64,000 nt of DNA from an uncultured Clostridia bacterium (GCA_947630765.1 CANRIX010000012.1:12129-76128); one strand, 5' to 3'; counted from the stretch's first letter, positions 3,636-37,504 are shown. Program-made: numbers and translations. The notes: generated from the letters alone by a model not told the origin.

Positions 3636-3692
3636 TTTGCCCCGACGGGGCGAAAAACGAGAAGGATTCGGTCAAATGATAGGGAGAAAACG

Positions 3693-11301: not shown

Positions 11302-11313
11302 AAACGCAAAAAA

Positions 11314-11356
11314 GGCGACCGATTTGCCGCGAAAGCGGTCGGTCGCCCCTTTTTTT
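11314..11356 (+). terminator. Rho-independent terminator after capA
   Basis: GGCGACCGA (11314-11322) pairs with TCGGTCGCC (11339-11347), followed by CC and TTTTTTT (11350-11356). Confidence 0.85.
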
Positions 11357-11389
11357 ACAAATTTTTTACGGCGAACGGGGGAAAATCGG

Positions 11390-11418
11390 TTGCAATTCCC
11401 GAAGGAATGTGCTATAAT
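11390..11418 (+). promoter_or_regulatory. Sigma-A-type promoter of the CotH/VTC/DUF4956 operon
   Basis: TTGCAA (11390-11395), 17 nt, TATAAT (11413-11418) preceded by TGc (extended -10). It sits directly after the capA terminator. Confidence 0.7.
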
Positions 11419-11485
11419 ACACCGTCTTTGGACCCTTTGGGATTTCTTGGGATCTTTGCGGAATGCGGAGGGAGGTTCGTCGCAC

Positions 11486-14806: not shown

Positions 14807-14825
14807 ACCGGAAAGGAGCATTCGC

Positions 14826-15500: not shown

Positions 15501-15527
15501 ATCTGAAGAGAAAGGAAAACAATCGTC

Positions 15528-17859: not shown

Positions 17860-18058
17860 GATTTTTAACATGGGGAGTAGTATTCCAAAAACTGCCTAAA
17901 CGCGGGCAGAGGATGCTGTTTTTCGGTGTAGGAAGGGTCTGGGCCGCCGGTTTCGGATCGAGGAGACGATGCGGGAGCGGCGGAACGGGAATTTTCCGGC
18001 GGGTGCTCCGCGATGCCTTGCGGAACGCCCGAAAAAAGTGTTGGAAAGGAAGGAATTT

Positions 18059-21000
18059 ATGAGCAAGTTCGGTACAAACAAGAGATGGATCGCATTGCTG
18101 CTGGCTGTCGTCATGCTGACGGGCATTCCGATCGCCACCGGCGCATTTTCCGTGAAAGCGGATGAATTCTTGCGGTTCACAGAAACTGACGTCTCGCCGG
18201 AGATCCATAAGGGCCTGGGCGATTTGCTGCCCGACGCCCCGCTTGCGCAGGAACCGGCGCCGGACGACGTGGTTCGTGTGTCCATCGTTCTGGAGGATGC
18301 ACCCACGCTGCAGAAAAAGTATTCCACCATCGGTATTGCGGCAAACGCAGAGGCAATGGCGTACAGCGATTCCCTGCGCGAGAAGCAGAATGCGGTGGAA
18401 AGCGTCATCGAGCGCGACGTCCTGCAGGGAAAACAGCTGGACGTGGTGTGGAATCTGACGCTCGCCGCCAACATCATCTCCGCAAACGTTGCATACGGGC
18501 GCGTTGACGCCATCAAATCCGTTTCCGGCGTCAAGGACGTCGTTTTGGAAAAGCAGTATGCGCCTGCGGTGGTAAATGATGAGCTGCCTGCCGACCCCAA
18601 CATGGGCACCTCCTCCGCTCAAATCGGTTCTCCTGCCGCTTGGGCCGGGAAGTTCTACGGTGCGGGAAGCAAAGTCGCGATCATCGACACGGGCATTGAT
18701 ACGAATCATCAGTCCTTCGACGAAGCGGCGTTCAATTACGCGCTCGAACAGCATGAAGTGACCGATACGCAAAAGGATTCCATGCTGACGGAGAAAGAGG
18801 TTCAGGAGCTTCTGAGCAAGCTGCATATCGCGGACCTCGCCGATCCGGACAAGATTTTCGTTTCCAATAAGATTCCGTTCGCATTCAACTATGTGGACGA
18901 AAACCACGATATTACGCACGACAATGACGAACAAGGCGAACACGGTTCCCACGTCAGCGGTATCGCTGCGGCAAACGCCTTTATCCCGCAGGGCGACGGT
19001 TTTGTTCCCGCGCTGGACGCGGTCAAGACGCAGGGCGTTGCGCCCGATGCGCAGATCCTGACTATGAAGGTGTTCGGTTCCAGCGGCGGCGCCTATGAAT
19101 CCGACTACATGGTCGCGATCGAGGACGCGATCCTGCTGGGTGCGGATTCCGTCAACCTGTCGCTGGGCTCCGCGGCGCCTGGTTTCGGCAACAGCGGCAT
19201 CTATGACGAAATCCTCAACGACCTGATGGTCAACAGCGACACGGTCGTTACCATGTCCGCCGGCAACAACGGCTACTGGGCGGAGAATTCCGAAGTCGGC
19301 GACCTGTTCGGCGACGACGTGAGCTTCCACACCGGCGGCTCGCCCGGAAGCTTTACGAATTCCCTCGCGGTCGCGTCCGTGGATAACGTCGGTCGTACCG
19401 ATTATTATGTCCGCGTGGGCGACAAAATGGTCTTCTATACCGATACCAACGCCAACTACGGGAAACCCGGTCTGGCTTCCATCGCCAGCGACGAGGCGTA
19501 CCCGTTTGTCTACCTCGACACGGTCGGTATTCATACGACGACGTTCCTCGGCACGATTACGGTGACGCTTGAGGATCAGCTTGAAGAGCTGGACGAGCAT
19601 CTGAAGGCGAACGGCGACGAAAACGGTCTGAAGGGCAAGGTCGTCCTTGTCAACCGCGGTATTTCGAGCTTCGCGCTCAAGTGCTCCGCCGCGGCGGAGC
19701 TCGGCGCGGCTGCCGTGATCATCGTCGACAATGCCCCGGGCAGCACCATCAACATGGATCTGACCGATTATACCGGCGAAGTGCCTGCCGTTGCCATTTC
19801 CATGGAGGACGGCGCCCTGTTCCGTGCCGGCGGCATTGCCGGAAAGGTTCCCGTTCAGTATGACAACGACGGCGAGAACAACCCGTGGGATGCGCCCTAC
19901 TACACCGGCGAATTCTACATTTCCGCGGAAGTCGGCTCCACCGACAGCGAAGCGGACCCGGACAATCGCTACACGATGTCCAGCTTCTCCTCCTGGGGCG
20001 TTCCCGGATCTCTGGTCATGAAGCCTGAGATCACCGCTCCCGGCGGAAACATCTATTCCGTCAACGGCGCGATCGAAAGCGGCGACGCTTACGAGAATAT
20101 GTCCGGCACCTCCATGGCGGCGCCGCAGGTGACCGGCATGGTTGCGGTCGTCGCGCAGTACATTCGCGAGAACGAGGCGAAGTTTGATCAGGTTGACTTC
20201 GACTATCGCCGCGCGCTCATCAACAGCCTGCTGATGTCCACGGCCAAGCCGGTCATCGCGGAGGACGGCAGTTACTACTCCATCCTCAGCCAGGGCGCCG
20301 GTCTTGCCAACGTCGGCGCGGCGATCCAGGCGCAGGCGGTCATTCAAATGGCGGAGAACGCCACGGCTTCCTATGCCGACGGCAAGGTCAAAGTCGAACT
20401 CGGCGACGACCCGAAGAAGGACGGCACCTACACGTATTCGTTCCTGATCACCAACGTGGGTGAAACGGATAATGAATACTTGCTTTCCACCGATCTGTTC
20501 ACGCAGGACCTGTACGAAGCGTATGGGTACACTTGGTTGGACACCGCGACCACGGAGCTGGGCGCATCGGTCAGCTACACGGTCCTCGCTGCTGATTTCA
20601 ATCGCGACGGCGTGACCGATTCGCGTGACGCGCAGGATATTCTTGATTATCTTTCCGACAGCGGCAAGATCGATCCTGAGACGGTCGATCCCGAAGCGGG
20701 CGATATGGACGGAGACGGCGAACTGACGACCTACGACGCGCATCTGATCCTTGCCGGGGCCGGCAAGACTGTCGATGCGGGCGCCGGTGATTCCATCGTC
20801 GTGGCCGCCGGCGAAACCGTCACGGTCAATGTTACCATCAACGTCAACAAGAGAGACCTTTCCGCTTACGAAAACGGCGCGTATGTCGAGGGTTACACCT
20901 TTGTGACGGCCGTTCCGAACGAAGAAGGCGTGCAGGATGTGGAGTACTCCATCCCGATCCTCGGGTTCTACGGGAATTGGAGCGAACCCTCCATGTTCGA

Positions 21001-24000
21001 CCGCACCAACTATCAGGAAACCGCGGATTACATCATTTACGGTCAGGACAGCGGGAATATCCCGTATAACAGCGATACGTCTATGTCCAACGTCCTGATC
21101 TATAAGGACAGCAACACCAAAGCCGAAGACGGAAAGCTCATCAACCCGTTCTATGCATACGGTCTCCCGGACCTCGGCGGTTTTGACTTCTACGATACCG
21201 ATGCGTCGCGCACCTCCATCAAGAGCAGCGACACGCTGGTCGGTTATGAATTCGCACTGATCCGCAACGCGTATGTGGCGGCCGTCATTGAAGATGCGGC
21301 GGGGAACGTCCTCGGTCTCACGGCTCCCACCGAGACAAACAGCGGATTCTACTACACCAACGGACAGGTTTGGCAGTCCCTCGTTTCCATGATGGGGATC
21401 AACCAGAAGGTTTCCGCGCTCGGACTTGACGAAGGCGACAGCTTCACCGTCAAGCTGGTTGCGCTGCCCGAATACTACTTCGGAAAAGCGCTTTCCGAGA
21501 GTGCGGAAGGCGAGCCGGTCAACACCGTTACTGCAAACGAGTTCCAGACCGTTTACAATACGGTCGAGATCGGAGATGGCGCGGTCCTTTCCACGACCAT
21601 GACCATTGACGATACCAAGCCGGAAATGCTTACGGCCCGCAGAAAGATGAGCGGCGAACTGGAGGTCACCCTGCAGGATAACCGTTATGTCGCGCACGTC
21701 AGCCTGAGAACGGCGGACGGCACCGGCTTCATCGACTGCGTTCTTCCCGAGCAAACCGCGCCGAACCAGGAATGCGTCGTCACCTTCCCGTGGCAAGAGG
21801 TCCAGACTCTTGTCAATGCGACTGAAGAAAACAAGGTCATGATCTATGTGGCCGACTACGCGGAGAACATTCACGCGTATATCATTGATCTGGCGACGGA
21901 AGAGGCCGAAGAAGCGGCTCCCACGGATATCGAACTTCCGGCGGAGGTCCACGTCTTTAACGGCGGCGTTTCCAGCGTCACGGCGACGATCCTCCCCTCG
22001 ATCATGACCGCGTCTGATTTGAACTGGTCGGTCGATAATCCCGAGGTCGCCGACGTGGACGAATTCGGAAACGTCACGGGTCTCAGCGTCGGCGAGGCGA
22101 CCCTCACCGCCGCTTCCAAGAAGGATCCTTCGATCAATGCGACCTCCAAGATCGTCGTCAAGGATGCGCCGAGCATTGATCTCGCAGGTATGGTCTTCAA
22201 CAAGGACAGCGAAACCTGGTGGAGCACCTTCAACCTGCAGGATCCCAGCCAATTCAAGCAAGTCGCGCAGGGTCCGGCGCTGTACGCGGGCGATTTCGCG
22301 CTTGGCTTCCAAACGATGTACGGGCATGACGGGACCAACGTCTGGAGAGTGGATATGAACACCTTCGAGTCGAAGTCGCTGTTTGCCATGAATCCGACAT
22401 ACCTGTTCCCGGACGCGGCTGTGAATAACTACTTTGCGGTGTATGGCGCGGGCGATTACGCGCTCCTTGCGCCGCAGGCGAACAGTGCGATCCTGATGAT
22501 CCTGCTGCCGGAAGCGGGCAATTTGTACACGGTCGATCTTTCGAGCGCGCTTCCCAGCAACATCTGCGCCATCGCGTTCAGCGGAATGGATGATTACAGT
22601 GAGCGCGACTACTACTACATGCTGCTGGAGAACGGCGACCTGTATCAGATTTATCTGTCCTCTGCCGGAAGCCTCGGCTACGGTCCGGTCGGCAACGTCG
22701 GCATGACCTTCGACGGCGCCGCCGCTGCGGACGGCACTTCGGTCACGTCCATGATGTACAGCTTCACCGCAAGAGAGTCGTTGTATCCGGACGGCATGAC
22801 CGAGCCGCTGCTCCTGACCCACTACAAGGAAGGGGACAGCACTGCGTATCTCTCCCTCATTGAAATCACCTTTGACGACATGGGCGATATCGCCTTCTGC
22901 GGAATCGCGGGTTCGATGCCCTTCGGCGACGCAGTCTGGCCGGTCAGCGCTCTGTACGATCCCGAGATGGTCGAGCCGGCTGACGAAGGCAACACCGTAC
23001 ACGCGCTTGCGGAGTACACGGTCGTCAACAACCTGTCCGACAAGATGTCGATGGTCGCCCCGGAAACCGAAAGCACTGCGCTCGGCGGAACGGGCAGCAC
23101 GTTCGTTCTGAATAAGAAGAACGGCGGCTCCGTCGCGCCCAATTCGATCGGCGTGGGCGGCAGCACGACCTACAACGTGGTGGATGTGGCGAACAACACC
23201 GTCACGATTGATATTTCTGCGGACGATTCTACGAACGGCCTGTTCAAGGTCGCCTGCCCTGCCGAACTGTCCCTGGTCAGTGTCGAGGGGTTGGTAGACT
23301 TCTATGCAAACGGCACTGCCGAGGATGGCTCCGTCGTCTTTGCATACGCCGACGCCGATTCTTTGACCTGCCCGGTCGCGAAACTGGTCTTCTCCTATGA
23401 GGAGGCGGACGAGTTGAAGCTGGTCGGGAAGACCGTCGATGTGACCACGGTCGAAGACGGCGAACCCGGCAAGGCGGAATCCGTCGAAACCATTCTGTTG
23501 ACCTTCGAGCCGGAGAGCTACGAGCTTTCTGTGCAGGTGGTTGACGGTTCTCACGATGCGCCGAATACCATCACCGAGGGCGAGGAAGCTTCCTTCACGA
23601 TCAAACCGAACGAAGGGTACAAACTGCCTGAGAGCGTCACCGTCACCATGAACGGTGAGGCGATGGATTCTGCGAACTACACCTACGATCCCGAAACCGG
23701 AGCTGTGACGCTGCAGAGCGACTACATCACCGGGCCGATCGTCGTCACGGCGTCCTGCGTCTACGTTCCGAAGGAATTCACGACCGACGCAGATGTGGAT
23801 AACGGCAGCACGACGATCCCGGAAACGGTGACCGAAGGCGAAGATGTTTCCTTCACGGTCAAACCGTCTGAAGGTTACAAGCTGCCTGAAAGCATCACGG
23901 TCAAGGTGAACGGCGTCGCTCTTGCGGCAGGTGACTACACCTACAACGCAGAGACCGGCGAAGTGGTGATTCCGGGCGACAAGGTGACTGGTCCGATCTC

Positions 24001-24319
24001 GGTTGAGGTCGCGTTTGTGGCTGCCGATGCCCCCGGAGACGAACCTTCTGAAGGCGACACTTCCTCCGGAGATACTCCCTCTGGTGGCGATACCTCCTCT
24101 GGTGACGACACCTCGAGCACGACGCCCGGAACTTCCTCCGGCGACGAAACTTCAAGCACGGCGCCCGGAACCTCTTCCGGCGACGAATCCACCAGCCCGA
24201 CCACGGGCGACGACGCGAGCATCCTGTTCTTCGCAATCATGGGTGTTCTGGCGCTGGTCGGCGCGATCTCGGCGGTGCGCCTGCGCAGATTTTCCCTTGA
24301 TGAAAAGCGTGGTCACTAA
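18059..24319 (+). CDS. Cell-surface subtilisin-like (S8, lactocepin/C5a-peptidase-type) protease with PA, dockerin-like, Big_2 and cohesin-like modules and a C-terminal SPxTG sorting signal
   Basis: 2086 aa from the ATG at 18059 (RBS GGAAAGGAAGG), with signal peptide MSKFGTNKRWIALLLAVVMLTGIPIATGAFSVKA. Catalytic triad contexts: VAIIDTGID, EHGSHVSGIAA, MSGTSMAAPQVTG. PA insert: GKVVLVNRGISSF..AAVIIVDN. The ORF-track start at 17969 adds 30 non-signal residues. Confidence 0.92.
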   Translation: MSKFGTNKRWIALLLAVVMLTGIPIATGAFSVKADEFLRFTETDVSPEIHKGLGDLLPDAPLAQEPAPDDVVRVSIVLEDAPTLQKKYSTIGIAANAEAMAYSDSLREKQNAVESVIERDVLQGKQLDVVWNLTLAANIISANVAYGRVDAIKSVSGVKDVVLEKQYAPAVVNDELPADPNMGTSSAQIGSPAAWAGKFYGAGSKVAIIDTGIDTNHQSFDEAAFNYALEQHEVTDTQKDSMLTEKEVQELLSKLHIADLADPDKIFVSNKIPFAFNYVDENHDITHDNDEQGEHGSHVSGIAAANAFIPQGDGFVPALDAVKTQGVAPDAQILTMKVFGSSGGAYESDYMVAIEDAILLGADSVNLSLGSAAPGFGNSGIYDEILNDLMVNSDTVVTMSAGNNGYWAENSEVGDLFGDDVSFHTGGSPGSFTNSLAVASVDNVGRTDYYVRVGDKMVFYTDTNANYGKPGLASIASDEAYPFVYLDTVGIHTTTFLGTITVTLEDQLEELDEHLKANGDENGLKGKVVLVNRGISSFALKCSAAAELGAAAVIIVDNAPGSTINMDLTDYTGEVPAVAISMEDGALFRAGGIAGKVPVQYDNDGENNPWDAPYYTGEFYISAEVGSTDSEADPDNRYTMSSFSSWGVPGSLVMKPEITAPGGNIYSVNGAIESGDAYENMSGTSMAAPQVTGMVAVVAQYIRENEAKFDQVDFDYRRALINSLLMSTAKPVIAEDGSYYSILSQGAGLANVGAAIQAQAVIQMAENATASYADGKVKVELGDDPKKDGTYTYSFLITNVGETDNEYLLSTDLFTQDLYEAYGYTWLDTATTELGASVSYTVLAADFNRDGVTDSRDAQDILDYLSDSGKIDPETVDPEAGDMDGDGELTTYDAHLILAGAGKTVDAGAGDSIVVAAGETVTVNVTINVNKRDLSAYENGAYVEGYTFVTAVPNEEGVQDVEYSIPILGFYGNWSEPSMFDRTNYQETADYIIYGQDSGNIPYNSDTSMSNVLIYKDSNTKAEDGKLINPFYAYGLPDLGGFDFYDTDASRTSIKSSDTLVGYEFALIRNAYVAAVIEDAAGNVLGLTAPTETNSGFYYTNGQVWQSLVSMMGINQKVSALGLDEGDSFTVKLVALPEYYFGKALSESAEGEPVNTVTANEFQTVYNTVEIGDGAVLSTTMTIDDTKPEMLTARRKMSGELEVTLQDNRYVAHVSLRTADGTGFIDCVLPEQTAPNQECVVTFPWQEVQTLVNATEENKVMIYVADYAENIHAYIIDLATEEAEEAAPTDIELPAEVHVFNGGVSSVTATILPSIMTASDLNWSVDNPEVADVDEFGNVTGLSVGEATLTAASKKDPSINATSKIVVKDAPSIDLAGMVFNKDSETWWSTFNLQDPSQFKQVAQGPALYAGDFALGFQTMYGHDGTNVWRVDMNTFESKSLFAMNPTYLFPDAAVNNYFAVYGAGDYALLAPQANSAILMILLPEAGNLYTVDLSSALPSNICAIAFSGMDDYSERDYYYMLLENGDLYQIYLSSAGSLGYGPVGNVGMTFDGAAAADGTSVTSMMYSFTARESLYPDGMTEPLLLTHYKEGDSTAYLSLIEITFDDMGDIAFCGIAGSMPFGDAVWPVSALYDPEMVEPADEGNTVHALAEYTVVNNLSDKMSMVAPETESTALGGTGSTFVLNKKNGGSVAPNSIGVGGSTTYNVVDVANNTVTIDISADDSTNGLFKVACPAELSLVSVEGLVDFYANGTAEDGSVVFAYADADSLTCPVAKLVFSYEEADELKLVGKTVDVTTVEDGEPGKAESVETILLTFEPESYELSVQVVDGSHDAPNTITEGEEASFTIKPNEGYKLPESVTVTMNGEAMDSANYTYDPETGAVTLQSDYITGPIVVTASCVYVPKEFTTDADVDNGSTTIPETVTEGEDVSFTVKPSEGYKLPESITVKVNGVALAAGDYTYNAETGEVVIPGDKVTGPISVEVAFVAADAPGDEPSEGDTSSGDTPSGGDTSSGDDTSSTTPGTSSGDETSSTAPGTSSGDESTSPTTGDDASILFFAIMGVLALVGAISAVRLRRFSLDEKRGH
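20594..20758 (+). other. Internal dockerin-like (duplicated EF-hand-type Ca-binding) module of the S8 protease
   Basis: DFNRDGVTDSRDAQDILDYL ... DMDGDGELTTYDAHLILAG: two D-x-[ND]-x-D-G-x-x-x-x-x-D loops, each followed by a helix, about 35 aa apart. Confidence 0.6.
23168..23515 (+). other. Cohesin-like beta-sandwich module of the S8 protease (tentative)
   Basis: TYNVVDVANNTVTIDISADDSTNGLFKVACPAELSLVSVEG..GSVVFAYADADSL..VAKLVFSYE follows the cohesin pattern (selected strand, x-x-[FV]-x-[YC]-[DP]-x-x-[VL]-x-[LV], later G-x-[IV]-x-F.. and [IV]A.[IL].F). The call is by eye only. Confidence 0.4.
23516..24019 (+). repeat. Two tandem ~84-aa repeat domains in the S8 protease C-terminal region
   Basis: R1 (23516-23773) and R2 (23774-24019) align throughout: T[IV]TEGE[ED].SFT[IV]KP[NS]EGYKLPES[VI]TV..NG.a....YTY[DN].ETG.V....D..TGPI.V. 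Confidence 0.8.
24194..24316 (+). other. Sortase-type cell-wall sorting signal with SPxTG motif
   Basis: SPTTG (24194-24208), then the hydrophobic stretch ASILFFAIMGVLALVGAISAV, then the basic tail RLRRFSLDEKRGH. It is preceded by a Ser/Thr/Gly/Asp-rich linker (24019-24193). Confidence 0.7.
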
Positions 24320-24757: not shown

Positions 24758-26302
24758 TTATTTTTTATTTGTCTTAAACGTTTCGATCAGACTGTCCAGG
24801 GCCGTTTGCGCCGCGCTTTCCAGCGATTGATAGGCGGACGTGAATTGTCCGGGCGTCTGAGACGCGAGGCTGGTCAGCATCGTCGAAAGGTTGTTCGAGG
24901 CGTCGCCGAGCGTGTAGATGTGCGCAAGGTCGGTGCCGGTGGTGCTGAAGATGATGTCCAGCATCTCCTTATCCTCGTCCGTGTGGAGCTTTTGATACTG
25001 CAAAACCACGTCGTAGTAGGTCTTGGCGACGGTATCAACGGAGTAGCCGCCGAGCGCGTCGAGAATGACCTGCGCCTGGTAGGATCTCGTTTCGTCCAGT
25101 CCGGCGGGAATGCAGTAGGCGTTCGACGACCAAGCGCCGATCATCGTGTAGTACTGTCCCTGCTCCAAATCGTACATCGGGGCAGGCAGAAGACCGAACT
25201 CGCCCTCCATGTCGCCGAGTCGGAGCGCCGTTTCCGCGTTGCCGGAATAGAACAGGCACCGATTCGCCTTGAAGGCCTCCTCGAGCAGGATCATCGGCGT
25301 GGGGGATTCGCTGAAGAAGTCGTCGCCGAGCACGTATTCCGCGTCGTTCTGCATGAGGGAGATGATTTTATCGACGACGTTGGAGCTTCTCTGGTTGTAC
25401 ATCGAGAGGATCAACGTGTCCTGCTCGTCCGGGCGGACGATGCGTTCGCCGGAGGCGTAGAACAGGTTGTGCATATCGCCGTTTTGCCCGCTCCAGCCGT
25501 AGGAGTCGTGGTAGGTGATGATCCCGTCGCCGTCAAGGTCCTGGCTGAGCCCGACCTGCGAAATGATGGAAAGCACCTCGTCGAGGGTCCATTTCATATC
25601 CCGCACGGTCTGGTAGGGATACTCCAGGCCGTACTGGTCAAACAGCGTCTTGTTGAAGTAGATGCAGTTGGCGGCGTTCTTGGCGCGCAGGCCGATGTCG
25701 CCGGTCAGATAGTAGGTGCTGCCCCCGATGGAGGTGTCCTTGATGATGATCTGGTCCCACCACGGGTTGGAGACGTCGATTCCCTCGGCGCTGCTGAGGT
25801 CGAGCAGCAGCCCGTTCGCCGCCATCGTCCCCGCGTCGATCAGGCAGGGGTAGTAGATGTCGTAGTCGAACGTACCGGCGGCCGCAAATTGCTGGACGGC
25901 GGACAGAAAACTGCCGTTATACCGCTTCGGGTCGATCTCAATTTTTTCCTCGATCTTGACGCCATACGCGTCCTCGACCAGGCGGGTGCGGTTCACGATC
26001 TCGTCGCTGAGCACCTTGGGACAGGTTTCGTTATTCTCGTTATTGCCGATCTCGGTGACGTATGCGTCGTTGAAGGCTGCGGTAAAGACCTTGACGGTCT
26101 GCCCTTGAAACGCGTCCGTTTCGACGAGATGTCCTTCGGCTTCCGAGGGGGCTGCCCTGCTGACCGCGTCAGAGGATCCGCTGGCAGACGTATCGGCTTC
26201 GCCCGATTCTTCCGCGCAGCCTGCGCAGACCACGGCGCAGAGTAGCGAAAGCAGCAGGCAGAGCGCGACGGTCGCTTTGACATGCAAATGCAGGTGTTTC
26301 AT
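24758..26302 (-). CDS. Lipoprotein, extracellular solute-binding protein-like (ABC-type SBP, family 1-like), orphan
   Basis: 514 aa from the ATG at 26302. Lipoprotein signal MKHLHLHVKATVALCLLLSLLCAVVCAGC. SBP-like body (TVKVFTAAFND.., NPWWDQ, YYLTGD). The ORF-track entry to 26797 is a shadow extension. It has its own promoter and terminator. Confidence 0.6.
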   Translation of the reverse strand: MKHLHLHVKATVALCLLLSLLCAVVCAGCAEESGEADTSASGSSDAVSRAAPSEAEGHLVETDAFQGQTVKVFTAAFNDAYVTEIGNNENNETCPKVLSDEIVNRTRLVEDAYGVKIEEKIEIDPKRYNGSFLSAVQQFAAAGTFDYDIYYPCLIDAGTMAANGLLLDLSSAEGIDVSNPWWDQIIIKDTSIGGSTYYLTGDIGLRAKNAANCIYFNKTLFDQYGLEYPYQTVRDMKWTLDEVLSIISQVGLSQDLDGDGIITYHDSYGWSGQNGDMHNLFYASGERIVRPDEQDTLILSMYNQRSSNVVDKIISLMQNDAEYVLGDDFFSESPTPMILLEEAFKANRCLFYSGNAETALRLGDMEGEFGLLPAPMYDLEQGQYYTMIGAWSSNAYCIPAGLDETRSYQAQVILDALGGYSVDTVAKTYYDVVLQYQKLHTDEDKEMLDIIFSTTGTDLAHIYTLGDASNNLSTMLTSLASQTPGQFTSAYQSLESAAQTALDSLIETFKTNKK

Positions 26303-26377: not shown

Positions 26378-26425
26378 ACAAAAAATACAAAAGACCGGCG
26401 GTTCCACGTTTAGGTGGAGCCGCCG
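26378..26425 (-). terminator. Rho-independent terminator (minus strand) ending the murQ / GDPD / cohesin-dockerin unit
   Basis: On the minus strand, CGGCGGCTCCAC pairs with GTGGAACCGCCG (11 of 12 bp; plus coordinates 26396-26425), followed by GTCTTTTGTATTTTTT. Confidence 0.7.
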
Positions 26426-26442
26426 ATCTCGCAGGAAAGTAT

Positions 26443-27237
26443 TTACTGCAATCGGAAGGTGCCGAGGACGTGCCGCTTGATCAACATGTAATCCGTCGCG
26501 TTGGTCCCGCCGTCCCAGTTCACGTCTGCGAGACGCATCTGCCTGTCCGTGAGCCGGAAGGTGCGAAGGACGTGCCGCTTGACCAGCAGATAGTCCGTCG
26601 CGTTGACCTTGCCGTCGCCGGAGACGTCGCCGTTCACGCCGTCCGGCGCGACCAGGTTCAGCCGGAGCGAGAACCGCTCTTCCGCGACGCGGAGGGCGCC
26701 GGACGCAGAGGAAAGGGAATTTTCCGGCGAAACCGTTGGGGAGCCCGGCGTCACCGTGACCGTTGTCGTGACCCCGGACTTGCGCGGACGAAAGCAAACG
26801 CTAAACAGCGTGCCGCTTGCGCGGGAGCGGTTGACGGCGCTCCCGGACGTGACGGTAAGCTCCCCCTGCGCCGCCATGGAGACGTTGACTGTTGTTACAT
26901 CGCCGTCGGGGATCATGGTCCAGCCGTCCGAATAAGCGTCGGTGAAGCAGCAGCCGGTATTCCGTTCGGACTGCGGAGTGCGCGCCAGTTCGAGCACCGT
27001 CGGGTCCCAGCGGACCGTGACGACGTAGGACGCGATCTTCGATTCGCCGCTCCCTGCCGAAAGGTTGACGGCGACGCGGAACAGGTCGGCGTCCGTCCCG
27101 CCGACGGAGATGTCGTCCGTTCGGACGGAGGCGGAAAACCTCGCTTGCGCGGCAGACGCGGCGCCGGCAGGAAACGAAAACGCGAACAGCAGCGCCAGCG
27201 CGAATGCGAGGAAAAGCAAACGTTTTTGGGCTTTGAT
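26443..27237 (-). CDS. Secreted cohesin-like + dockerin protein (small adaptor/scaffoldin-like)
   Basis: After the signal-like segment KAQKRLLFLAFALALLFAFSFPAGA comes a cohesin-like module (about 26740-27141: LFRVAVNLSAGSGESKIASYVVTVRWDPTVLEL..GTLFSVCFRPRK). Then a C-terminal dockerin (26446-26631: GDVSGDGKVNATDYLLVKRHVL..DVNWDGGTNATDYMLIKRHVLGTF). The start is uncertain: ATC 27237, TTG 27219 or TTG 27321; there is no in-frame ATG or GTG. Confidence 0.65.
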   Translation of the reverse strand: MKAQKRLLFLAFALALLFAFSFPAGAASAAQARFSASVRTDDISVGGTDADLFRVAVNLSAGSGESKIASYVVTVRWDPTVLELARTPQSERNTGCCFTDAYSDGWTMIPDGDVTTVNVSMAAQGELTVTSGSAVNRSRASGTLFSVCFRPRKSGVTTTVTVTPGSPTVSPENSLSSASGALRVAEERFSLRLNLVAPDGVNGDVSGDGKVNATDYLLVKRHVLRTFRLTDRQMRLADVNWDGGTNATDYMLIKRHVLGTFRLQ

Positions 27238-27267
27238 GGTGCAGACCCCCTTTTGCGAAGGTTTGTG

Positions 27268-27298
27268 GAAAGAGGGCGTCCGGCGGACGCCCTCTTTC
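27268..27298 (-). other. Strong intercistronic stem-loop between the GDPD and cohesin-dockerin genes
   Basis: GAAAGAGGGCGTCC / GGACGCCCTCTTTC: about 14 bp of perfect pairing around a 3-nt loop. No clean T-run follows on the minus strand, so it does not look like a full terminator. Confidence 0.7.
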
Positions 27299-27313
27299 GA
27301 TTTGGGTTGAGAA

Positions 27314-30300
27314 TTATGCAAAGAGATTGAAACTCTTGAGCACGTGACGCTTGATCAGCATGTAGTCGTTCGCATTGATTTCATCTTTGCTGTCCACCAT
27401 GACGTCCGCCGCGAGCGTCTGGATGTCGGTGAGCTTAAACGTTTTGAGCGCGCCGCGCTTGACGAGCATGTAGTCGAACGCGTCGACCTTGCCGTTGCTG
27501 TTGATGTCGCCGCGGACGATGATGGTCGCCTTCTTGCCCTTGTACTCGATCGTATAGCCGTTGCCGATGACGTCGACGTCGGTGACTTCTTCGCCTTTCG
27601 CGTCATAGATCTTCGCGTTTCCTGCGTCCGCGATGGCGAGCAGGAAATCCTTCGCAGAGGTCTTTTCCGCGACGCCGGTCAGCTTGTCGCCGTCGAGCGT
27701 GTAATCCGTGCTGTTGACCGTCAGGGTGTCAATATCGCCGACTTTGACGGTGATCGGCTGGGTGTACAGCGTATACTTGGTCGCGCCGTCCGGCATGGTC
27801 GCCTCGTAGGAAACCATGACCGTCGCTTCGCCGTTCTTCTTCGCGGTCAGCGTGCCATCCTCGTTGACTTCGACGACGCCGTCGTTATCGAGCGGGATGA
27901 TCTTGGCCGACGCGCCGATGCTGGTGCTGCCGTTGCCGTAGGTAACAGCCTTGGCGTTGAGCGCGAAGGTGTTGTTCGTGGCCGCTCTAATGGTGTCCGG
28001 CGCGGTGATGGTCTTGACCACGGTCTTGAAGTACGCCGCGTCATTGGTCGTAAGCCCGTTCATGCCGGCGAGGAACATCTGGTTGACGGTTGAGCGGACG
28101 CTGGACGAATAGGTCCAGGTCCAGAACGTCATGCCGCGGTCGCCCGCATCGCGAATATATTCCGCGTTGATGCCGCCGTAGGACGGGCCAAGCGTACCGT
28201 TGCAGTTGAGCGCGCTGGTCTGGAGCGAGTAGTAGCCGTTGAGGACCGCTGCCGTGTCCGTGACTTGCGCGACCGTGCCGCCGAGCAGGTCGGCGCAGGT
28301 GTTCAGTTCCTGCTTGATGAGACGGACCTGATTGCTGTGGAAGCTGATGTAGACGACCTGGTCTTCCATTTCGTATTTCTTGACCAGTTCGGCGGTCTTT
28401 TTCGGCAGCTCCGCCTGATCTTCCTTCAGCTCGCAGAGGATCTTGATGTCCTTATCCTTGAATTCGATGAGCATTTCCTCGAAGGTCGGGATCGGTTCGT
28501 CCGTGCCGTCGAGCGTGTATTGACGAAGCTCGTCAAAGGTCTTGTCGTGGATATAGCCCGTGCCGGCGGTGGTGCGGTCGATGGTGTCGTCGTGCATGAC
28601 CATGACGACGCCGTCCTTGGAAAGGTGCACGTCGGTTTCGAGGTTATCCACGCCCTCTCTGTAGGCGGCTCTGTAGGCGGCCATGGAGTTCTCCGCGTAC
28701 TTTTCCGAGTAGCCTCTGTGCGCGGTGTAGACCGAGGTGCGGGTCAGGGAATTCTCCGCGGTAAAGAGCTTGGTTTCCGCTTCCGAAACCAGCGCGTAGT
28801 TGTCGGAAATGACCGCATTCGCGCCGGAAGCCAGCAGATAGGCCGCCTGGGTATTGGTGGTGACGCCCGTGCCGAGCGCCCAGACGGAAAGCTGGAACTG
28901 CTGCAGCACCGCGACGTTCTCCTTGGTTGCGAGCGCGTACGGCAGCAGGATGCCCTGCGCGTTTGCGCCGGCGGCCGTCTGGTACGCGGCAAAGCGCTCG
29001 TCGGCGGTCATGGTTTCCGCCGTGACTTCGTAGATACCGCGGAGGTTCGCAGGTCTCTGCTCACGCGCGGACTTCAAAAGTTCGGCGCTCGGCGTGACGA
29101 CCACGGCTTCCGGCACCAGCGTGCTCTTGAGCGCCGTGACCAGATTGGTCAGCTGCGCATCGGTAGTGATGCGGAATTCCGGAATGATCTTTTTGTCGTA
29201 GCAGGTCGTCAGATAGGTCTCGAATTTAGCGGCGGTAACGTCAGCCGCGACGTCCAGCAGGACCGCGACCGGGCGCTTCTCGGCGTTGACGATCGCGTTG
29301 AACGCGGCTTCGTCCTTCGCGTAAGCCTGGTCGGACACATAGCTGGTGATGTTGGATTGCGGACGGTTTGCGCTGGTGTCGATCAGATTATCCCGCTCCG
29401 GCAGTTTTTCCGGCGCCTGCTCCATCACGGTGACCTTGATGGAATCCACGTTCAGAACGCCCTGGTCGGAGAGAAGACCGAGGAGACCGGTGGTTTCTTC
29501 GTGCTTGGTGTTCTTCAGCTTGGAGATGTCCTCCACATAAATGGCCCGCTCTCCGTCCACCGAGAAGGCGGCGGAACCGCCGAAGAGGTTGAGGGTGAGG
29601 TCGTGGTAGCCGGTGATCATGTTCAGCACATAGGAGATGCGAAGGTCATATTCGGTGTTTACATAAGGATATTCCCACGCCCCGTTGTGCATCCCCGAAA
29701 ATTCGAGGGTGTTGGCGGTCTGATTGGCGCGAATGGTAATGTGGCGCTCCTCTTTGTAGGTACCGTCGTCCTTCACATGGAACATAATGGCGCTCCAGCG
29801 AGCGGAGTTGGCGACTTCCGTCTGGCTGGCGCTCATCGTGATGGCGTAATCGCCGAAGTCTCCCAGCCATTTCGGGAGCATGAGCTTGGATTGTCCGATG
29901 CTTGTCGCGCCCAAGTGCAGCGCACCGTCGGAGACGCTGTACGGGGAAGCGCCGCCGGCCGCATTTTTCCCTTCGATCCAGCCGTCTGCGGCGAGGGAAG
30001 CGGTGGTAGCCGAATCAAAATCGTTTTCGTACAGGACGAACTCGGTTTCATCCGGGTTCTTCGCGACCACATAGACGTTTTTGGTGGTCGTCCCGGCGGT
30101 CGCGGTCAGCGTCGTCACGCCTTTTTTATCCGGCGTGACCGTGGTGACGGCGCTGTCGCCGTTCTTCCAGGTGATGTCCTTGGCGGCGAGGGTGGTGTTT
30201 GCATCGACCTGAACGCTGACCTTCGTCAAGTCGATTTCCGTGCCCACGTCGACGGTCAACGCCGGGTTGGTGTAGGTCAGGGTGATCTCGGCGCTTTCCG

Positions 30301-30388
30301 CCACCGTCGCGGGAACGGAAAGGGACGAAACGACCGTTGCCAGCATCAACACAGTGAGCAGGACGGAAAGAATGCGTTTTGCTTTCAT
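27314..30388 (-). CDS. Secreted multidomain glycerophosphodiester phosphodiesterase (GDPD) with Big_2, LamG/ConA-like and C-terminal dockerin modules
   Basis: 1024 aa from the ATG at 30388 (RBS AAGGAG), with signal MKAKRILSVLLTVLMLATVVSSLSVPATVAES. GDPD core at about 28100-28740 (YTAHRGYS..ENSMAAY..ETDVHLSKDGVVMVMHDDTIDRTT). Dockerin at 27317-27511 (GDINSNGKVDAFDYMLVKRGAL..EINANDYMLIKRHVLKSF). The ORF-track start at 30931 is a shadow over murQ. Confidence 0.88.
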   Translation of the reverse strand: MKAKRILSVLLTVLMLATVVSSLSVPATVAESAEITLTYTNPALTVDVGTEIDLTKVSVQVDANTTLAAKDITWKNGDSAVTTVTPDKKGVTTLTATAGTTTKNVYVVAKNPDETEFVLYENDFDSATTASLAADGWIEGKNAAGGASPYSVSDGALHLGATSIGQSKLMLPKWLGDFGDYAITMSASQTEVANSARWSAIMFHVKDDGTYKEERHITIRANQTANTLEFSGMHNGAWEYPYVNTEYDLRISYVLNMITGYHDLTLNLFGGSAAFSVDGERAIYVEDISKLKNTKHEETTGLLGLLSDQGVLNVDSIKVTVMEQAPEKLPERDNLIDTSANRPQSNITSYVSDQAYAKDEAAFNAIVNAEKRPVAVLLDVAADVTAAKFETYLTTCYDKKIIPEFRITTDAQLTNLVTALKSTLVPEAVVVTPSAELLKSAREQRPANLRGIYEVTAETMTADERFAAYQTAAGANAQGILLPYALATKENVAVLQQFQLSVWALGTGVTTNTQAAYLLASGANAVISDNYALVSEAETKLFTAENSLTRTSVYTAHRGYSEKYAENSMAAYRAAYREGVDNLETDVHLSKDGVVMVMHDDTIDRTTAGTGYIHDKTFDELRQYTLDGTDEPIPTFEEMLIEFKDKDIKILCELKEDQAELPKKTAELVKKYEMEDQVVYISFHSNQVRLIKQELNTCADLLGGTVAQVTDTAAVLNGYYSLQTSALNCNGTLGPSYGGINAEYIRDAGDRGMTFWTWTYSSSVRSTVNQMFLAGMNGLTTNDAAYFKTVVKTITAPDTIRAATNNTFALNAKAVTYGNGSTSIGASAKIIPLDNDGVVEVNEDGTLTAKKNGEATVMVSYEATMPDGATKYTLYTQPITVKVGDIDTLTVNSTDYTLDGDKLTGVAEKTSAKDFLLAIADAGNAKIYDAKGEEVTDVDVIGNGYTIEYKGKKATIIVRGDINSNGKVDAFDYMLVKRGALKTFKLTDIQTLAADVMVDSKDEINANDYMLIKRHVLKSFNLFA

Positions 30389-30441
30389 TGAGGTGAACTC
30401 CTTTTCTGCGATTTTATCTGTTTTTCTTTTTTCTCTCTCGG

Positions 30442-31293
30442 TTATTCGCACGACCCCGACAGCCCCGTGCCCGCTTCGATCGCGTCCATCGCATCGGCAA
30501 TAACGTTGTGCGCCTTTTCCAGCTCGCGCGCCGCGCGTTCGGGGGCGCAGCCGGTCTTTTGGCAGATCATGCGGATCGCCCGGTCGACCAATTTGCGGTT
30601 GGACGGGATCATGTACGCCATATAATTCCCGCGCACCCGCCCGAAGCGGACCATCCCGCCGGTCGAGAGCATATTGAGGATCATTTTCTGCGCCGTGCCG
30701 GCCTTCATGCGGGTCGAGCCGCTGATGACCTCGGGGCCGACCTCGGCGATGATCGCGAGGTCCGAAAGCGGGATCAGGTCGCTGCCACGGTTGCAGGAGA
30801 TGCAGACGGTTTTCGCCCCGCACGACCGCGCGTACCGCAACGCACCCTTGACGCATTCCGCCGAGCCGCTCGCGGAGATCGCGACGAGCAGATCCGCTTC
30901 GCCGAACGCGTATTCCCCGCGCAGCAGGCAAACCAGACTATCCGGGTCGTCCTCGGCGTCCTCGGAAGGGTGGATCAGCGCGCTGGTTCCGCCCGCCATC
31001 AGACCGATGACGCGGTCCTGCAAACCGTACGTCGGCGGGATCTCGGCCGCGTCCACCACGCCGAGCCGCCCGGACGTTCCCGCGCCGCAGTAGAACACGC
31101 GACCGCCCGCACGCAGCGCACCGGCGAACAGCTCGATCCCTTCGGCGACCTGCGGCAGGCAACGCTCCACCGCGAGCGCGACGGTCTGGTCCTCCCGGTT
31201 GATCAGCCGGGCGATCTCCAGCGCGTCCATTCTGTCGATGGACGCGGCGGCGGCATTTTCGCCCTCCGTTGCAAGTTTGCCAAAATCTGCCAT
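30442..31293 (-). CDS. murQ: N-acetylmuramic acid 6-phosphate etherase
   Basis: 283 aa. SIS-domain MurQ signature: LATEGENAAAASIDRMDALEIARLINRED..VFYCGAGTSGRLGVVDAAEIPPTYG..ISASGS..GSTRMKAGTAQK. Confidence 0.92.
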   Translation of the reverse strand: MADFGKLATEGENAAAASIDRMDALEIARLINREDQTVALAVERCLPQVAEGIELFAGALRAGGRVFYCGAGTSGRLGVVDAAEIPPTYGLQDRVIGLMAGGTSALIHPSEDAEDDPDSLVCLLRGEYAFGEADLLVAISASGSAECVKGALRYARSCGAKTVCISCNRGSDLIPLSDLAIIAEVGPEVISGSTRMKAGTAQKMILNMLSTGGMVRFGRVRGNYMAYMIPSNRKLVDRAIRMICQKTGCAPERAARELEKAHNVIADAMDAIEAGTGLSGSCE

Positions 31294-31321
31294 TTGTTTC
31301 CCTTTCTGGCGCCGAAAAACG

Positions 31322-31337
31322 GTATCGGAACCGATAC
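31322..31337. promoter_or_regulatory. Operator-like palindrome at the predicted murQ transcription start
   Basis: GTATCGG-AA-CCGATAC (7-2-7 inverted repeat), 6 nt downstream of the murQ -10 box and 29 nt upstream of the murQ ATG. Confidence 0.45.
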
Positions 31338-31343
31338 AAGTTT

Positions 31344-31372
31344 ATTTTAACACAGAAGAAGCGGTTTGTCAA
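31344..31372 (-). promoter_or_regulatory. Sigma-A-type promoter (minus strand) of murQ / GDPD-dockerin / cohesin-dockerin
   Basis: Read on the minus strand: TTGACA (31372-31367), 17 nt, TAAAAT (31349-31344). Confidence 0.65.
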
Positions 31373-31414
31373 TCGTTTTTGCAATTTCTTTTCGGAAAAA
31401 TGTCTTAAAACCCG

Positions 31415-31443
31415 TTGACAAAAAAAGGGAGATATGGTAGTAT
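31415..31443 (+). promoter_or_regulatory. Sigma-A-type promoter of the GT2 gene cluster (divergent from murQ)
   Basis: TTGACA (31415-31420), 17 nt, TAGTAT (31438-31443). Confidence 0.55.
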
Positions 31444-35856: not shown

Positions 35857-36600
35857 TTATTTGTCTTGCGTCGGGTCTTGTGCCGCGGATTCGCAGAGCG
35901 CCGCCAATTCCGCGTCGGTCGCCTCACGGACAGCGCCTTCCGGCAGGTCGTCCGGCAGATTGAGGTTTCCGATGGCGACGCGGTGCAGCCCGACGACCGC
36001 CGCGCCGCAGGCGGCGAACATCCGCTTGATCTGGTGGTATCGCCCCTCGGTCAGGGTCACGAGGGCGGTATTTTGCCCGACGATCGAAAGCGACGCCGGT
36101 TTGCAGACCCCGTCGGAGAGTTCCACCCCTTTCGCGAAGCGTTTCGCCATTTCTTCGGTCGGCGGGACGTCGAGCGTGACGAAGTAGCGCTTCTTGACGT
36201 GCCGCTTGGGGGCGAGGATGCGGTGGGCGAACTGCCCGTCGTCGGTCAGGAGCATCAGCCCGGTCGTGTCCTTGTCCAGCCGCCCCGCCGGGAACAGCCC
36301 GCGCCGGAACAGTGTCGGCGGGACCAGTTCGAGCACGGTGGGTCCGTCCCCCGCGTCGGTCGACGAAACGTAGCCCTTCGGCTTGTGGAGCAGCAGGTAG
36401 ACGTGGGTTTTAAGCGTCAGCGGGACGCCGTCGATCGCGACGGACGCGGTTTCCGGGTCGATTTTCTGCTCCGCGCTCTTCGCCCGCACGCCGTCGACCG
36501 TGACCCGTCCGCGTGCGATCAGCGCTTTCGCGTCCCGGCGGGAAAGCGGGGTCTCCCCGCCCTGCGAAGCGAGCAGTTTGTCCAGCCGTTCGGGCTTCAT
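35857..36600 (-). CDS. rRNA pseudouridine synthase, RsuA/RluB family (S4 domain + PseudoU_synth_2)
   Basis: 247 aa. S4 N-terminus: RLDKLLAS..SRRDAKALIARGRVTVDG. Catalytic motif: GRLDKDTTGLMLLTDDG. Confidence 0.88.
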   Translation of the reverse strand: MKPERLDKLLASQGGETPLSRRDAKALIARGRVTVDGVRAKSAEQKIDPETASVAIDGVPLTLKTHVYLLLHKPKGYVSSTDAGDGPTVLELVPPTLFRRGLFPAGRLDKDTTGLMLLTDDGQFAHRILAPKRHVKKRYFVTLDVPPTEEMAKRFAKGVELSDGVCKPASLSIVGQNTALVTLTEGRYHQIKRMFAACGAAVVGLHRVAIGNLNLPDDLPEGAVREATDAELAALCESAAQDPTQDK

Positions 36601-37472
36601 GCGGGGTTGCGCGGCAGGGCGTAGGTGCCGAGGACTGCCCGCTTGACGAGCATGTAGTCAACGGCATTGACGGCGCCGTCCCGGTTCACGTCCGCGTAGC
36701 CGGTGCGTTCGCCGAGAGAAAAGGTGCCGAGGACGTCCCGCTTGACGAGCATATAATCCACGGCATTTACGCGGCCGTCGCCGTTCGCGTCGCCGAGGTC
36801 CAGACGGTACAGGGCGTCGACGAGTGCGGACGCGTAGAGCGCGTAGCCCCGTGCGTTCGGGTGTACGCCGTCCGCGAGCAGACCGTCGACCGTGCCCTTA
36901 GTCATTTCCGCCGTTTCGGTGAAGATTCGGTACAGGTCCGCCGTGACCAGACCGTATTCCGCCGCGAGCTCCCGCGCAGCAAGGACGTATTGCAGGTAGA
37001 AGGCGTTCGCCCCGCCGTGCGGTTCAAATACGGCGCGGTCGTGCCGGGTGTAGTAGTCGGTTTCGCCGATCGGGTTTTCGATGACCAGCACCACGCGTGC
37101 GCCGGCGGCGGTCGCCCGTTCGATCATGTCCCGCAGATTTGCGCGATAGGTTTCGAGCGGCACATACTTCGCCATGTCCAGCGCCGCGTCGTTCATGCCG
37201 AAGGAGAGCAGCAGGACGTCCGGCTTTTGCGCGAGCGCCGAGGCAAACGCCGCCCGCCCGTCGGCGGAATTCCAGCCCCCGACGGCCTTATTGACGACGG
37301 AAATGCCGAACGCCTTTTCCGCGTCGGAGAACCACGCCCCGGAAGCCGTGATGCTGTCGCCGAACGCGACGATCTTTTTGTCCCGGCTTGTCAGTGCGGA
37401 CGGGCAGACCGCGCAAACGGAGAAAAGCACGGAAAGCGCCAGCAGGAGGGAAGAAAAGCGGAACCGTTTCAT
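36597..37472 (-). CDS. Secreted SGNH/GDSL-family esterase with C-terminal dockerin
   Basis: 291 aa from the ATG at 37472, with signal MKRFRFSSLLLALSVLFSVCAVC. SGNH block I is IVAFGDSITASG; later blocks are GMND and DGVHPN. Dockerin at 36600-36794 (GDANGDGRVNAVDYMLVKRDVLGTF..DVNRDGAVNAVDYMLVKRAVLGTY). The stop overlaps the rsuA-like start (ATGA). Confidence 0.85.
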   Translation of the reverse strand: MKRFRFSSLLLALSVLFSVCAVCPSALTSRDKKIVAFGDSITASGAWFSDAEKAFGISVVNKAVGGWNSADGRAAFASALAQKPDVLLLSFGMNDAALDMAKYVPLETYRANLRDMIERATAAGARVVLVIENPIGETDYYTRHDRAVFEPHGGANAFYLQYVLAARELAAEYGLVTADLYRIFTETAEMTKGTVDGLLADGVHPNARGYALYASALVDALYRLDLGDANGDGRVNAVDYMLVKRDVLGTFSLGERTGYADVNRDGAVNAVDYMLVKRAVLGTYALPRNPA

Positions 37473-37504
37473 GTTTTGTTCGTCCTTTCGCACGCTTTTT
37501 GTTC

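Follow-up and report, generated by a model that had tools for sequence, protein, structure and literature searches.

A conserved murQ-glycerophosphodiesterase gene pair in uncultured gut Clostridia: a possible unit of cell-wall salvage

Introduction

Why should the gene for a cytoplasmic enzyme of amino-sugar catabolism be followed by the gene for a large secreted phosphodiesterase? This question is raised by a 64,000-nt stretch of DNA, called the window below (G+C content about 60%), from an uncultured Clostridia bacterium (GCA_947630765.1, CANRIX010000012.1:12129-76128). On its minus strand, murQ is followed by a gene encoding a secreted protein with a glycerophosphodiester phosphodiesterase (GDPD) domain and a dockerin, and by a third gene encoding a cohesin-dockerin protein. 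MurQ catalyzes the committed cytoplasmic step in the catabolism of N-acetylmuramic acid (MurNAc), in which MurNAc 6-phosphate (MurNAc-6-P) is converted into N-acetylglucosamine 6-phosphate and D-lactate. A first-pass annotation of the window had described a promoter, murQ, a 53-nt gap, the GDPD-dockerin gene, the cohesin-dockerin gene and a distal terminator, and had proposed that together they form a unit for harvesting envelope material. The order and coordinates of these elements were correct. The data presented here point to a conserved two-gene operon (three genes in this genome) that may serve the salvage of wall material, a statement to which, with its functional part included, we assign a probability of roughly 0.45.

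Conservation of the murQ-GDPD gene pair

The core of the locus consists of the following features:

31344-31372, minus strand: murQ promoter, sigma-70 type, with an extended -10 element (TTGACA-N14-TGtTAAAAT; TTGACA-17-TAAAAT, 11 of 12 matches)
30442-31293, minus strand: murQ, encoding the MurNAc-6-P etherase, 283 aa, cytoplasmic (NCBIfam and solved MurQ structures)
30389-30441, minus strand: murQ-GDPD spacer, 53 nt, with the ribosome-binding site (RBS) AAAGGAG 9 nt before the ATG; free of promoter- and terminator-like sites
27314-30388, minus strand: gene for the secreted multidomain GDPD-dockerin protein, 1024 aa (Pfam, AlphaFold model, Foldseek, hhalign)
28028-28732, minus strand: predicted catalytic GDPD domain, residues 553-787 (Pfam GDPD, PF03009, at residues 557-783)
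27338-27511, minus strand: type I dockerin of the GDPD protein, residues 960-1017 (Pfam Dockerin_1)

Related loci (designated L001 onward) were collected by searching with the GDPD protein, which gave 56 genomic loci, and with MurQ, which gave 31 metagenomic loci; those with a MurQ at least 60% identical and at least 600 nt of downstream sequence were taken to be informative. They belong to metagenome-assembled genomes labelled Clostridia, Oscillospiraceae, "uncultured Ruminococcus" and Candidatus Coliplasma, the hosts being rabbit, sheep, goat, yak, buffalo and horse (gut). A look-up of the exact MurQ protein of the window in the public assemblies returned no record.

The conservation of the adjacency among relatives, on which the first-pass annotation had made its proposal depend, is borne out: the GDPD gene directly follows murQ in 30 of the 33 informative loci despite differing flanks, a figure which overstates the number of independent observations, since many of the loci are redundant, near-duplicate or from closely related assembled genomes. 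The estimated gaps range from 5 to 66 nt, and the pair spans loci with G+C contents of 0.38-0.62 and GDPD proteins from 87% down to 28% identical. Seen from the GDPD side, all 12 orthologous loci (GDPD 86-42% identical) carry murQ immediately upstream, as do L023 and L054, in which the GDPD is about 30% identical, and 42 loci with GDPD paralogues have no upstream murQ. Seen from the MurQ side, nearly all the loci with enough downstream sequence and a MurQ at least 61% identical have a GDPD-family gene next to it; the more distant MurQ loci (below 55% identity) show the usual neighbors of Bacteroidota or Acidobacteriota type and no GDPD gene. In a crude neighbor-joining tree, the linked GDPD copies occupy three deep branches with no unlinked copy inside them, and about 40 unlinked paralogues fall into other clades.

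The flanks of the pair are of at least three types. Many loci have a divergent block consisting of genes for a family 2 glycosyltransferase (GT2), a GFO-type oxidoreductase and a sugar isomerase; L060-L068 have a gene for a CitMHS-type transporter upstream and one for a DNA methylase downstream; and L070 has rimP-nusA-infB upstream and an SBP_bac_5 gene downstream. These contexts bear on the simplest explanation of the pairing, according to which a fast-evolving surface-protein gene came to lie, in some ancestor, behind a housekeeping murQ and has been inherited since then, hitch-hiking on the murQ promoter, with no functional link. It can be said in favor of this explanation that all the loci come from one broad group of uncultured Clostridia, that housekeeping neighbors are more conserved than the GDPD (in L010, the GFO-type oxidoreductase is 88% identical, MurQ 72% and the GDPD 43%), and that the GDPD gene has been lost in three loci (L058, L073 and L074). 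The pair has nevertheless outlasted the replacement of both flanks over the above range of G+C content and a fall in GDPD identity to 28%, with very short spacers throughout, and we hold mere inherited adjacency to be quite improbable. In L074 (6846-8986), as in L073, a new promoter (TTGAAA-17-TGATATTAT) lies behind murQ and precedes a gene for a small membrane protein and one for a 542-aa dockerin protein, which is unrelated to the GDPD protein outside the dockerin.

The near-consensus promoter TTGACA-17-TAAAAT reported at 31372-31344 in the first-pass annotation was recovered with 11 of 12 matches. The extended pattern TTGACA-N14-TGNTANAAT has a single occurrence in the 64 kb, and 100 shuffled sequences contained none. 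An alignment of 13 orthologous leaders shows no variation in the -35 hexamer or at the TG-N-TA..AT positions, the remainder being divergent. An internal promoter for the GDPD gene was considered and rejected: none is predicted, and the spacer contains a TAAAAT which is neither conserved nor accompanied by a -35 element. In many relatives the spacer is only 14-21 nt long, which leaves no room for a promoter or terminator. Since the murQ promoter occurs nowhere else in the window and is retained in relatives, the spacer contains no promoter-like or terminator-like site, and the homologous spacers are 5-66 nt long, it is highly probable, judging from the sequences, that murQ and the GDPD gene are co-transcribed.

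The MurQ and GDPD proteins

MurQ passed the cut-offs of two NCBIfam models (NF009222, 324.1 bits with a cut-off of 255; NF003915, 319.4 bits with a cut-off of 168) and fell narrowly below that of the equivalog TIGR00274 (293.6 versus 302 bits), the match stopping at position 262 of the 291 in the model. Residues 5-261 align with the MurQ of Haemophilus influenzae (4LZJ/1NRI, E 3e-66), and both acidic motifs are kept (DAAEiPPT and hpSEDAED, versus DASEcPPT and hpVEGAED in H. influenzae); they include the catalytic acidic residues, which we take to be at the positions of Glu83 and Glu114 of Escherichia coli MurQ. The MurQ of the window thus appears to be catalytically intact and looks active.

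The GDPD protein consists, in this order, of a Sec-type signal peptide, an immunoglobulin (Ig)-like domain, a beta-sandwich scoring as DUF1080 in orthologues (Pfam marks), a non-catalytic TIM barrel, the GDPD TIM barrel, two Ig-like domains and the dockerin. It was modelled with AlphaFold (AF2) from 31 homologues with a mean confidence score (pLDDT) of 89. The family defined by the N-terminal architecture is small: out of 1.84 billion representatives, 295 clusters matched at E<=1e-3. The first TIM barrel (residues 352-540) is an eight-fold beta/alpha barrel resembling only the C-terminal two-thirds of a GDPD domain (hhalign probability 69-80%); the possibility that it might be a second active GDPD was rejected in view of this weak profile similarity and of the absence of the His-Arg and Glu-x-Asp motifs.

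The second barrel gave a Pfam GDPD score of 125.9 bits, the gathering threshold being 23.6. The catalytic and metal-binding residues H557, R558, E584, D586, H599, E653 and K655, which were aligned to the GDPD of Thermoanaerobacter tengcongensis (2PZ0), are invariant in 31 family members. In Foldseek the barrel superposes on 2PZ0 with a template modelling (TM) score of 0.85 and a root-mean-square deviation of 2.4 Å; the TM score is 0.87 with the C-terminal domain of phage K gp155 and 0.74 with Bacillus subtilis GlpQ (5T9B). The Ca-type active site is predicted to be intact, and the modelled fold is that of an active GDPD. The dockerin of this protein scored 36.9 bits with the model of type I dockerins, which consist of a duplicated Ca-binding segment (PF00404, threshold 22.9), and that of the third protein 59.3 bits; solved dockerins were also matched, and the two dockerins are 58% identical to each other.

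The third gene and the end of the transcript

Beyond the GDPD gene, three further features were identified:

27268-27298, minus strand: perfect 14-bp G+C-rich hairpin, 16 nt past the GDPD stop codon (-26.8 kcal/mol, z -7.2)
26443-27237, minus strand: gene for the cohesin-dockerin protein, ScaC-like architecture (dockerin 59.3 bits; cohesin by predicted fold)
26378-26425, minus strand: intrinsic terminator closing the unit (-29 kcal/mol, z -4.75, U-rich tail), then UCUUUUGUAUUUUUU

The first-pass annotation had placed the first good terminator at 26425-26378. The fold and the U-rich tail agree with a terminator there, and its being the first overlooks the hairpin at 27298-27268, which was matched in stability by none of 200 shuffled sequences. 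In the window, the tail of this hairpin has no clean U-run (…CUCUUUCCACAAACC), and the coding strand continues with CACAAACC; it may therefore be a weak or leaky terminator or a stabilizer of the mRNA 3' end rather than a textbook terminator. Twelve of the 13 syntenic loci have a hairpin at the corresponding place. In L007, L008, L010, L012 and L023 a U-run makes it a canonical terminator, and in L006-L008, L010 and L012 it is followed by a promoter of the TTGCAT/TATAAT type.

In the window and in L001-L004, the third gene begins about 25 nt past the hairpin, and no promoter-like site was found there either between the two or in the 3' end of the GDPD gene, so that the third gene would be expressed by read-through only. 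Its likely start is the ATC at 27237-27235, 8 nt after AAAGGGGG; an in-frame TTG upstream, at 27321, is the alternative and is the start adopted in the public gene calls, which read through the hairpin. The ATC position is conserved as a start, with ATC in the window, L001 and L002, ATT in L003 and ATG in L004 and L005, always 8 nt after a strong RBS. The hairpin and the weak start codon suggest that the third gene is expressed at a low level relative to the GDPD gene.

The third protein, about 265 aa long, starts with a signal peptide, which is followed by one cohesin and, at the C-terminus, by a dockerin. The dockerin was the sole match in the default Pfam and NCBIfam searches and in the phmmer and profile searches against the PDB, and the cohesin is below the Pfam Cohesin (PF00963) threshold (15.7 versus 24.1 bits, E 0.017). 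Fifteen of 17 family members match that model at E <= 0.1, with a best value of 6e-6, and the precomputed Pfam marks give PF00963 for three of them (P0039, P0044 and P0046). The AF2 model (pLDDT 84) has the nine-stranded beta-sandwich fold of cohesins, and each of its top 24 Foldseek matches is to a cohesin module (E 3e-8 to 6e-6), with TM scores, normalized to the target, of 0.43-0.72 for single modules and 0.32 for one multi-module chain. The identification of this protein as a cohesin-dockerin protein in the first-pass annotation was thus right, the cohesin resting on the predicted fold and the family-wide Pfam scan and the dockerin on Pfam. It is no more than a candidate adaptor, since its own dockerin and that of the enzyme it would carry belong to one type.

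Co-transcription had been proposed for all three genes. It is well supported for murQ and the GDPD gene, with their conserved promoter and short spacers, and does not extend securely to the third gene, which is lineage-specific and separated by the hairpin; the conserved core, as judged from the aligned loci, is promoter-murQ-GDPD, the cohesin gene and even the dockerin being confined to certain lineages. Among L006-L008, L010 and L012, the gene after the GDPD was checked in L010 alone (11226-14609), where it has its own promoter and encodes a 1127-aa protein with a cohesin at one end, a dockerin at the other and repeats of OB-fold-like and of F5/8 type C modules. This gene is thus a long counterpart, in syntenic position, of the short cohesin-dockerin gene found in the window.

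Possible functions of the gene pair

The sequence of events we favor would be as follows. A single sigma-70-type promoter with an extended -10 element would drive murQ and, 53 nt further on, the gene for the Sec-secreted 1024-aa phosphodiesterase; part of the transcription would probably read past the hairpin lacking a U-run into the small cohesin-dockerin gene, and the canonical terminator would end the unit. The dockerin would tether the enzyme to cohesin-bearing surface proteins. Outside the cell, it would cut phosphodiester-linked anionic wall polymers of the teichoic-acid type, or glycerophosphodiester fragments, which would free glycerol phosphate and unmask the peptidoglycan; inside, MurQ would process the incoming MurNAc, both proteins belonging to one regulon for the salvage of Gram-positive wall material. 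The uptake and phosphorylation of MurNAc would have to be encoded elsewhere. The envelope-harvesting function is what we infer from several observations. The pair is kept as a unit in differing contexts, the binding-type modules of the GDPD protein would suit a polymer or a surface, and its fold neighbors include B. subtilis GlpQ, which is active on wall teichoic acid (WTA), and the spike domain of phages K (gp155) and phi812. Surface tethering is suggested by the dockerin of the GDPD protein, the adjacent cohesin and the other dockerin-bearing hydrolases of the window.

The fold of the GDPD barrel is compatible with generic, cytoplasmic-type GDPDs and with teichoic-acid-active ones alike, so that the substrate cannot be read from it. 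Another explanation is accordingly that the two genes are co-transcribed and biochemically unrelated: the GDPD would scavenge glycerol 3-phosphate or phosphate from the head-groups of dietary, host or microbial phospholipids (glycerophosphocholine, etc.), as GlpQ and UgpQ do, MurQ would recycle the cell's own peptidoglycan, and the shared promoter would reflect a starvation or stationary-phase program. This would be in line with the fact that the best match, in terms of both sequence and structure, is the generic GDPD 2PZ0, with the lack of any further wall-recycling gene linked to the pair in the window or the related loci, and with the recurrence beside GDPD paralogues of a solute-binding family suited to the uptake of small products; the known secreted GlpQ enzymes also serve under phosphate limitation (PMC9208761). 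It fits less well with the retention of the pair in several unrelated contexts and in one orthologous line only, which exceeds what shared regulation usually preserves, or with the lectin-like, Ig-like and dockerin modules, which seem better adapted to a polymer or a surface than to small diesters. We consider scavenging of this kind unlikely, while granting it appreciable weight.

Several points count against wall salvage. Apart from the redundancy of the loci mentioned above and the generic nature of the best GDPD match, murQ occurs without the GDPD gene in three related loci; the strong hairpin between the GDPD gene and the third gene may end most transcripts; and the cohesin gene was not detected in the other linked clades, at least one linked GDPD (that of L076) having no dockerin. 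A simple shared starvation promoter is a competing explanation of some weight. Furthermore, the Pfam scan of about 45 open reading frames (ORFs) in the window detected no MurNAc phosphotransferase system (PTS) or other MurNAc transporter, no kinase of the MurK or AnmK type, no MupG, NagZ or amidase, and no RpiR/MurR regulator, as the first-pass annotation had said of the transporter and the MurR-type regulator, and the same partner genes were not found in the related loci examined, so that the route by which MurNAc-6-P is supplied is unseen.

The missing transporter and kinase can also be taken to favor a more direct coupling. The phosphate of the MurQ substrate occupies the position at which wall polymers are attached to MurNAc. 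If the GDPD, as in the model put forward for WhyD, cut the wall-polymer phosphodiester at C6 of MurNAc, it could leave fragments bearing MurNAc-6-P, which MurQ would use after their import, with no need for MurP or MurK. The absence of a MurNAc PTS or kinase linked to this murQ in the window and the examined loci would be accounted for, and in one subclade a CitMHS-type anion transporter gene lies directly upstream of murQ. WhyD, an enzyme with a GlpQ domain, has been argued to cleave the phosphate linkage between WTA and peptidoglycan (PMC9208761). This proposal is purely inferential, however: it would depend on which P-O bond is cut by an enzyme of this kind, and the import of phosphorylated muropeptides has no known precedent. 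We regard direct coupling as a long shot. The same low odds are given to its fullest form, in which the GDPD would be a WhyD-like "de-linker" acting on the MurNAc C6 phosphodiester of the cell's own wall or those of its neighbors, would connect teichoic-acid removal with MurNAc-6-P catabolism, possibly bypassing MurP and MurK, and would belong to a cohesin-dockerin assembly of protease, esterase and phosphodiesterase digesting bacterial envelopes, not plant fiber.

Coming back to wall salvage as described above, the material could come from the cell's own turnover or from the debris of neighbors, and the evidence points both ways. The divergent GT2 of polyprenyl-phosphate type and the unlinked GDPD paralogues beside MBOAT, AlgX and DHHW genes point toward the cell's own envelope, and the many dockerin-bearing hydrolases in the window toward extracellular digestion.

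Comparison with known systems

The sigmaA operon murQ-murR-murP-amiE-nagZ-ybbC of B. subtilis also joins murQ to extracellular wall-degrading enzymes: there, murQ is the first gene to be transcribed from a sigmaA-type promoter, and its transcript also covers the genes for AmiE and NagZ, which act outside the cell (PMC5061867). The present locus differs from that operon and from mupG-murQ-murP-murR of Staphylococcus aureus in that the partner is a GDPD phosphodiesterase, not a glycosidase or amidase, no MurP or MurR is linked, and the secreted partner is tethered by a dockerin. In Tannerella forsythia, murQ belongs to the MurT-MurK-MurQ unit for the use of MurNAc from other bacteria (PMC5790795), which includes a transporter and a kinase, neither of which is linked here; that cluster has no known extracellular enzyme partner.

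GlpQ-type enzymes hydrolyze WTA, and the GlpQ-domain protein WhyD of Streptococcus pneumoniae frees WTA from sacculi, probably by acting where the polymer is joined to peptidoglycan (PMC9208761). In a walR mutant of S. aureus, glpQ and glpT are down-regulated together with mupG-murQ-murP-murR (PMC9547203). The predicted enzyme of the window shares with the secreted GlpQ proteins of B. subtilis and S. aureus and with WhyD the GDPD TIM-barrel fold, the catalytic and metal-binding residues and the extracellular location. It is about 24% identical to GlpQ. GlpQ is a single-domain protein of about 290 aa belonging to phosphate-starvation regulons, and WhyD is a membrane protein with seven transmembrane segments, whereas the protein of the window has 1024 aa and adds to the GDPD barrel a further, non-catalytic one, along with Ig-like domains, a beta-sandwich and a dockerin. 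The central-spike GDPD of phages K (gp155) and phi812 gives one of the best fold matches (TM 0.87, E 6e-16), and it too is carried by a large multidomain extracellular protein, the phage infecting S. aureus, which is rich in teichoic acid; gp155 is, however, a virion protein and its other domains are unrelated.

The third protein resembles the ScaC-type adaptor scaffoldins of Ruminococcus flavefaciens, which have one cohesin and one dockerin, and its fold matches include R. flavefaciens cohesins. It differs from ScaC in its very divergent cohesin, below the Pfam cut-off, in its non-cellulolytic context and in having a dockerin of the same type as that of its cargo.

Full-text literature searches yielded no report linking murQ with a GDPD, glycerophosphodiester or GlpQ gene, and no paper naming a dockerin together with a GDPD or a glycerophosphodiester phosphodiesterase. 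The murQ-GDPD linkage appears to be unreported, and appears to belong to the known class of wall-recycling operons.

The murQ leader and neighboring genes

Three further features adjoin the unit:

31415-31443, plus strand: back-to-back promoter of the divergent GT2 gene, TTGACA-17-TAGTAT, conserved in the aligned leaders
31322-31337, minus strand: perfect 16-nt palindrome GTATCGGTTCCGATAC in the murQ leader, between the -10 element and the murQ start, present in L001-L003 only
24758-26302, minus strand: gene for a lipoprotein solute-binding protein (weak SBP_bac_1), outside the transcript, with its own promoter TTGCAT-17-TGgTATACT (26366-26338)

For the leader palindrome, the roles of operator, attenuator and riboswitch were considered and discarded, since among the related loci it occurs only in L001-L003, it is not stable as RNA (z-score of the fold -0.14) and it has no credible Rfam match; it is probably not a conserved functional element. 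The Rfam search gave two chance matches far below threshold, neither of them on the palindrome: one with a miRNA family at 31366-31423, 29-86 nt upstream of the palindrome, and one with CsrC on the hairpin after the GDPD gene. The closest NCBIfam models of the divergent GT2, which is of the polyprenyl-phosphate glycosyltransferase type, are PgfS and ArnC, both below their cut-offs.

The only transporter seen adjoining this murQ in the related loci is the CitMHS-type anion transporter, the gene for which is about 135 nt upstream on the same strand (L060:4724-5863, also L061, L063 and L068). The family of the solute-binding protein downstream of the unit, for which no PDB or NCBIfam match was found, is conserved at that place in L001-L004, L007-L012 and L057. 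It also occurs beside GDPD paralogues, including tandem triplets (L033, L043), and the window contains two large orphan lipoproteins of this solute-binding kind with no adjacent permease genes (24758-26302, minus strand; 3537-5108, plus strand). The dockerin-less GDPD paralogues of about 915 aa (L013-L056) lie about 1 kb downstream of a gene for a DUF4358 lipoprotein and adjoin a divergent cluster of MBOAT and DHHW/AlgX-like O-acyltransferase genes in 13-16 loci (for example L014:6936-7502, L017:3307-4692, L015:1600-2754 and L028:2738-4138). This neighborhood hints at a role of the paralogues in modifying the cell's own surface polymers.

Two other dockerin enzymes are encoded nearby. The gene at 17969-24319 (plus strand), convergent with that of the solute-binding protein, encodes an S8 peptidase of 2116 aa, in which a PA domain, a dockerin located internally (residues 875-926) and Big_2 domains are combined with a C-terminus resembling a sortase signal (SPTTG, a hydrophobic stretch and an RLRR tail); that at 36597-37502 (minus strand) encodes a GDSL/SGNH esterase with a C-terminal dockerin. 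A protease, an esterase and a GDPD make up three non-glycosidase dockerin enzymes within 20 kb, which suggests that a non-cellulosomal cohesin-dockerin display system may be encoded here. Further away, a 2373-aa protein (55831-62952, minus strand) combining GT2, glucoamylase-like and glycoside hydrolase family 94 (GH94) domains has the architecture of a cyclic beta-1,2-glucan synthase, and the region 11000-16196 (plus strand) encodes a 1268-aa protein with four lamin-tail domains and a CotH kinase domain, a VTC-domain protein and a DUF4956 protein.

Significance

In model Gram-positive bacteria, peptidoglycan recycling and teichoic-acid degradation belong to separate regulons. The murQ-GDPD pair, found across an abundant clade of uncultured Clostridia from the gut of herbivores, would provide the first evidence from genomes of the two being operated as a single unit. 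Cohesin-dockerin display would also be extended to a class of enzymes which are not carbohydrate-active. If the GDPD did act at the MurNAc-6-phosphate linkage, this would explain why murQ occurs here without its usual transporter and kinase partners, and the interest of the locus would be all the greater. The GDPD is a concrete enzyme that can be expressed, and its substrate could show how gut anaerobes use bacterial wall material (necromass).

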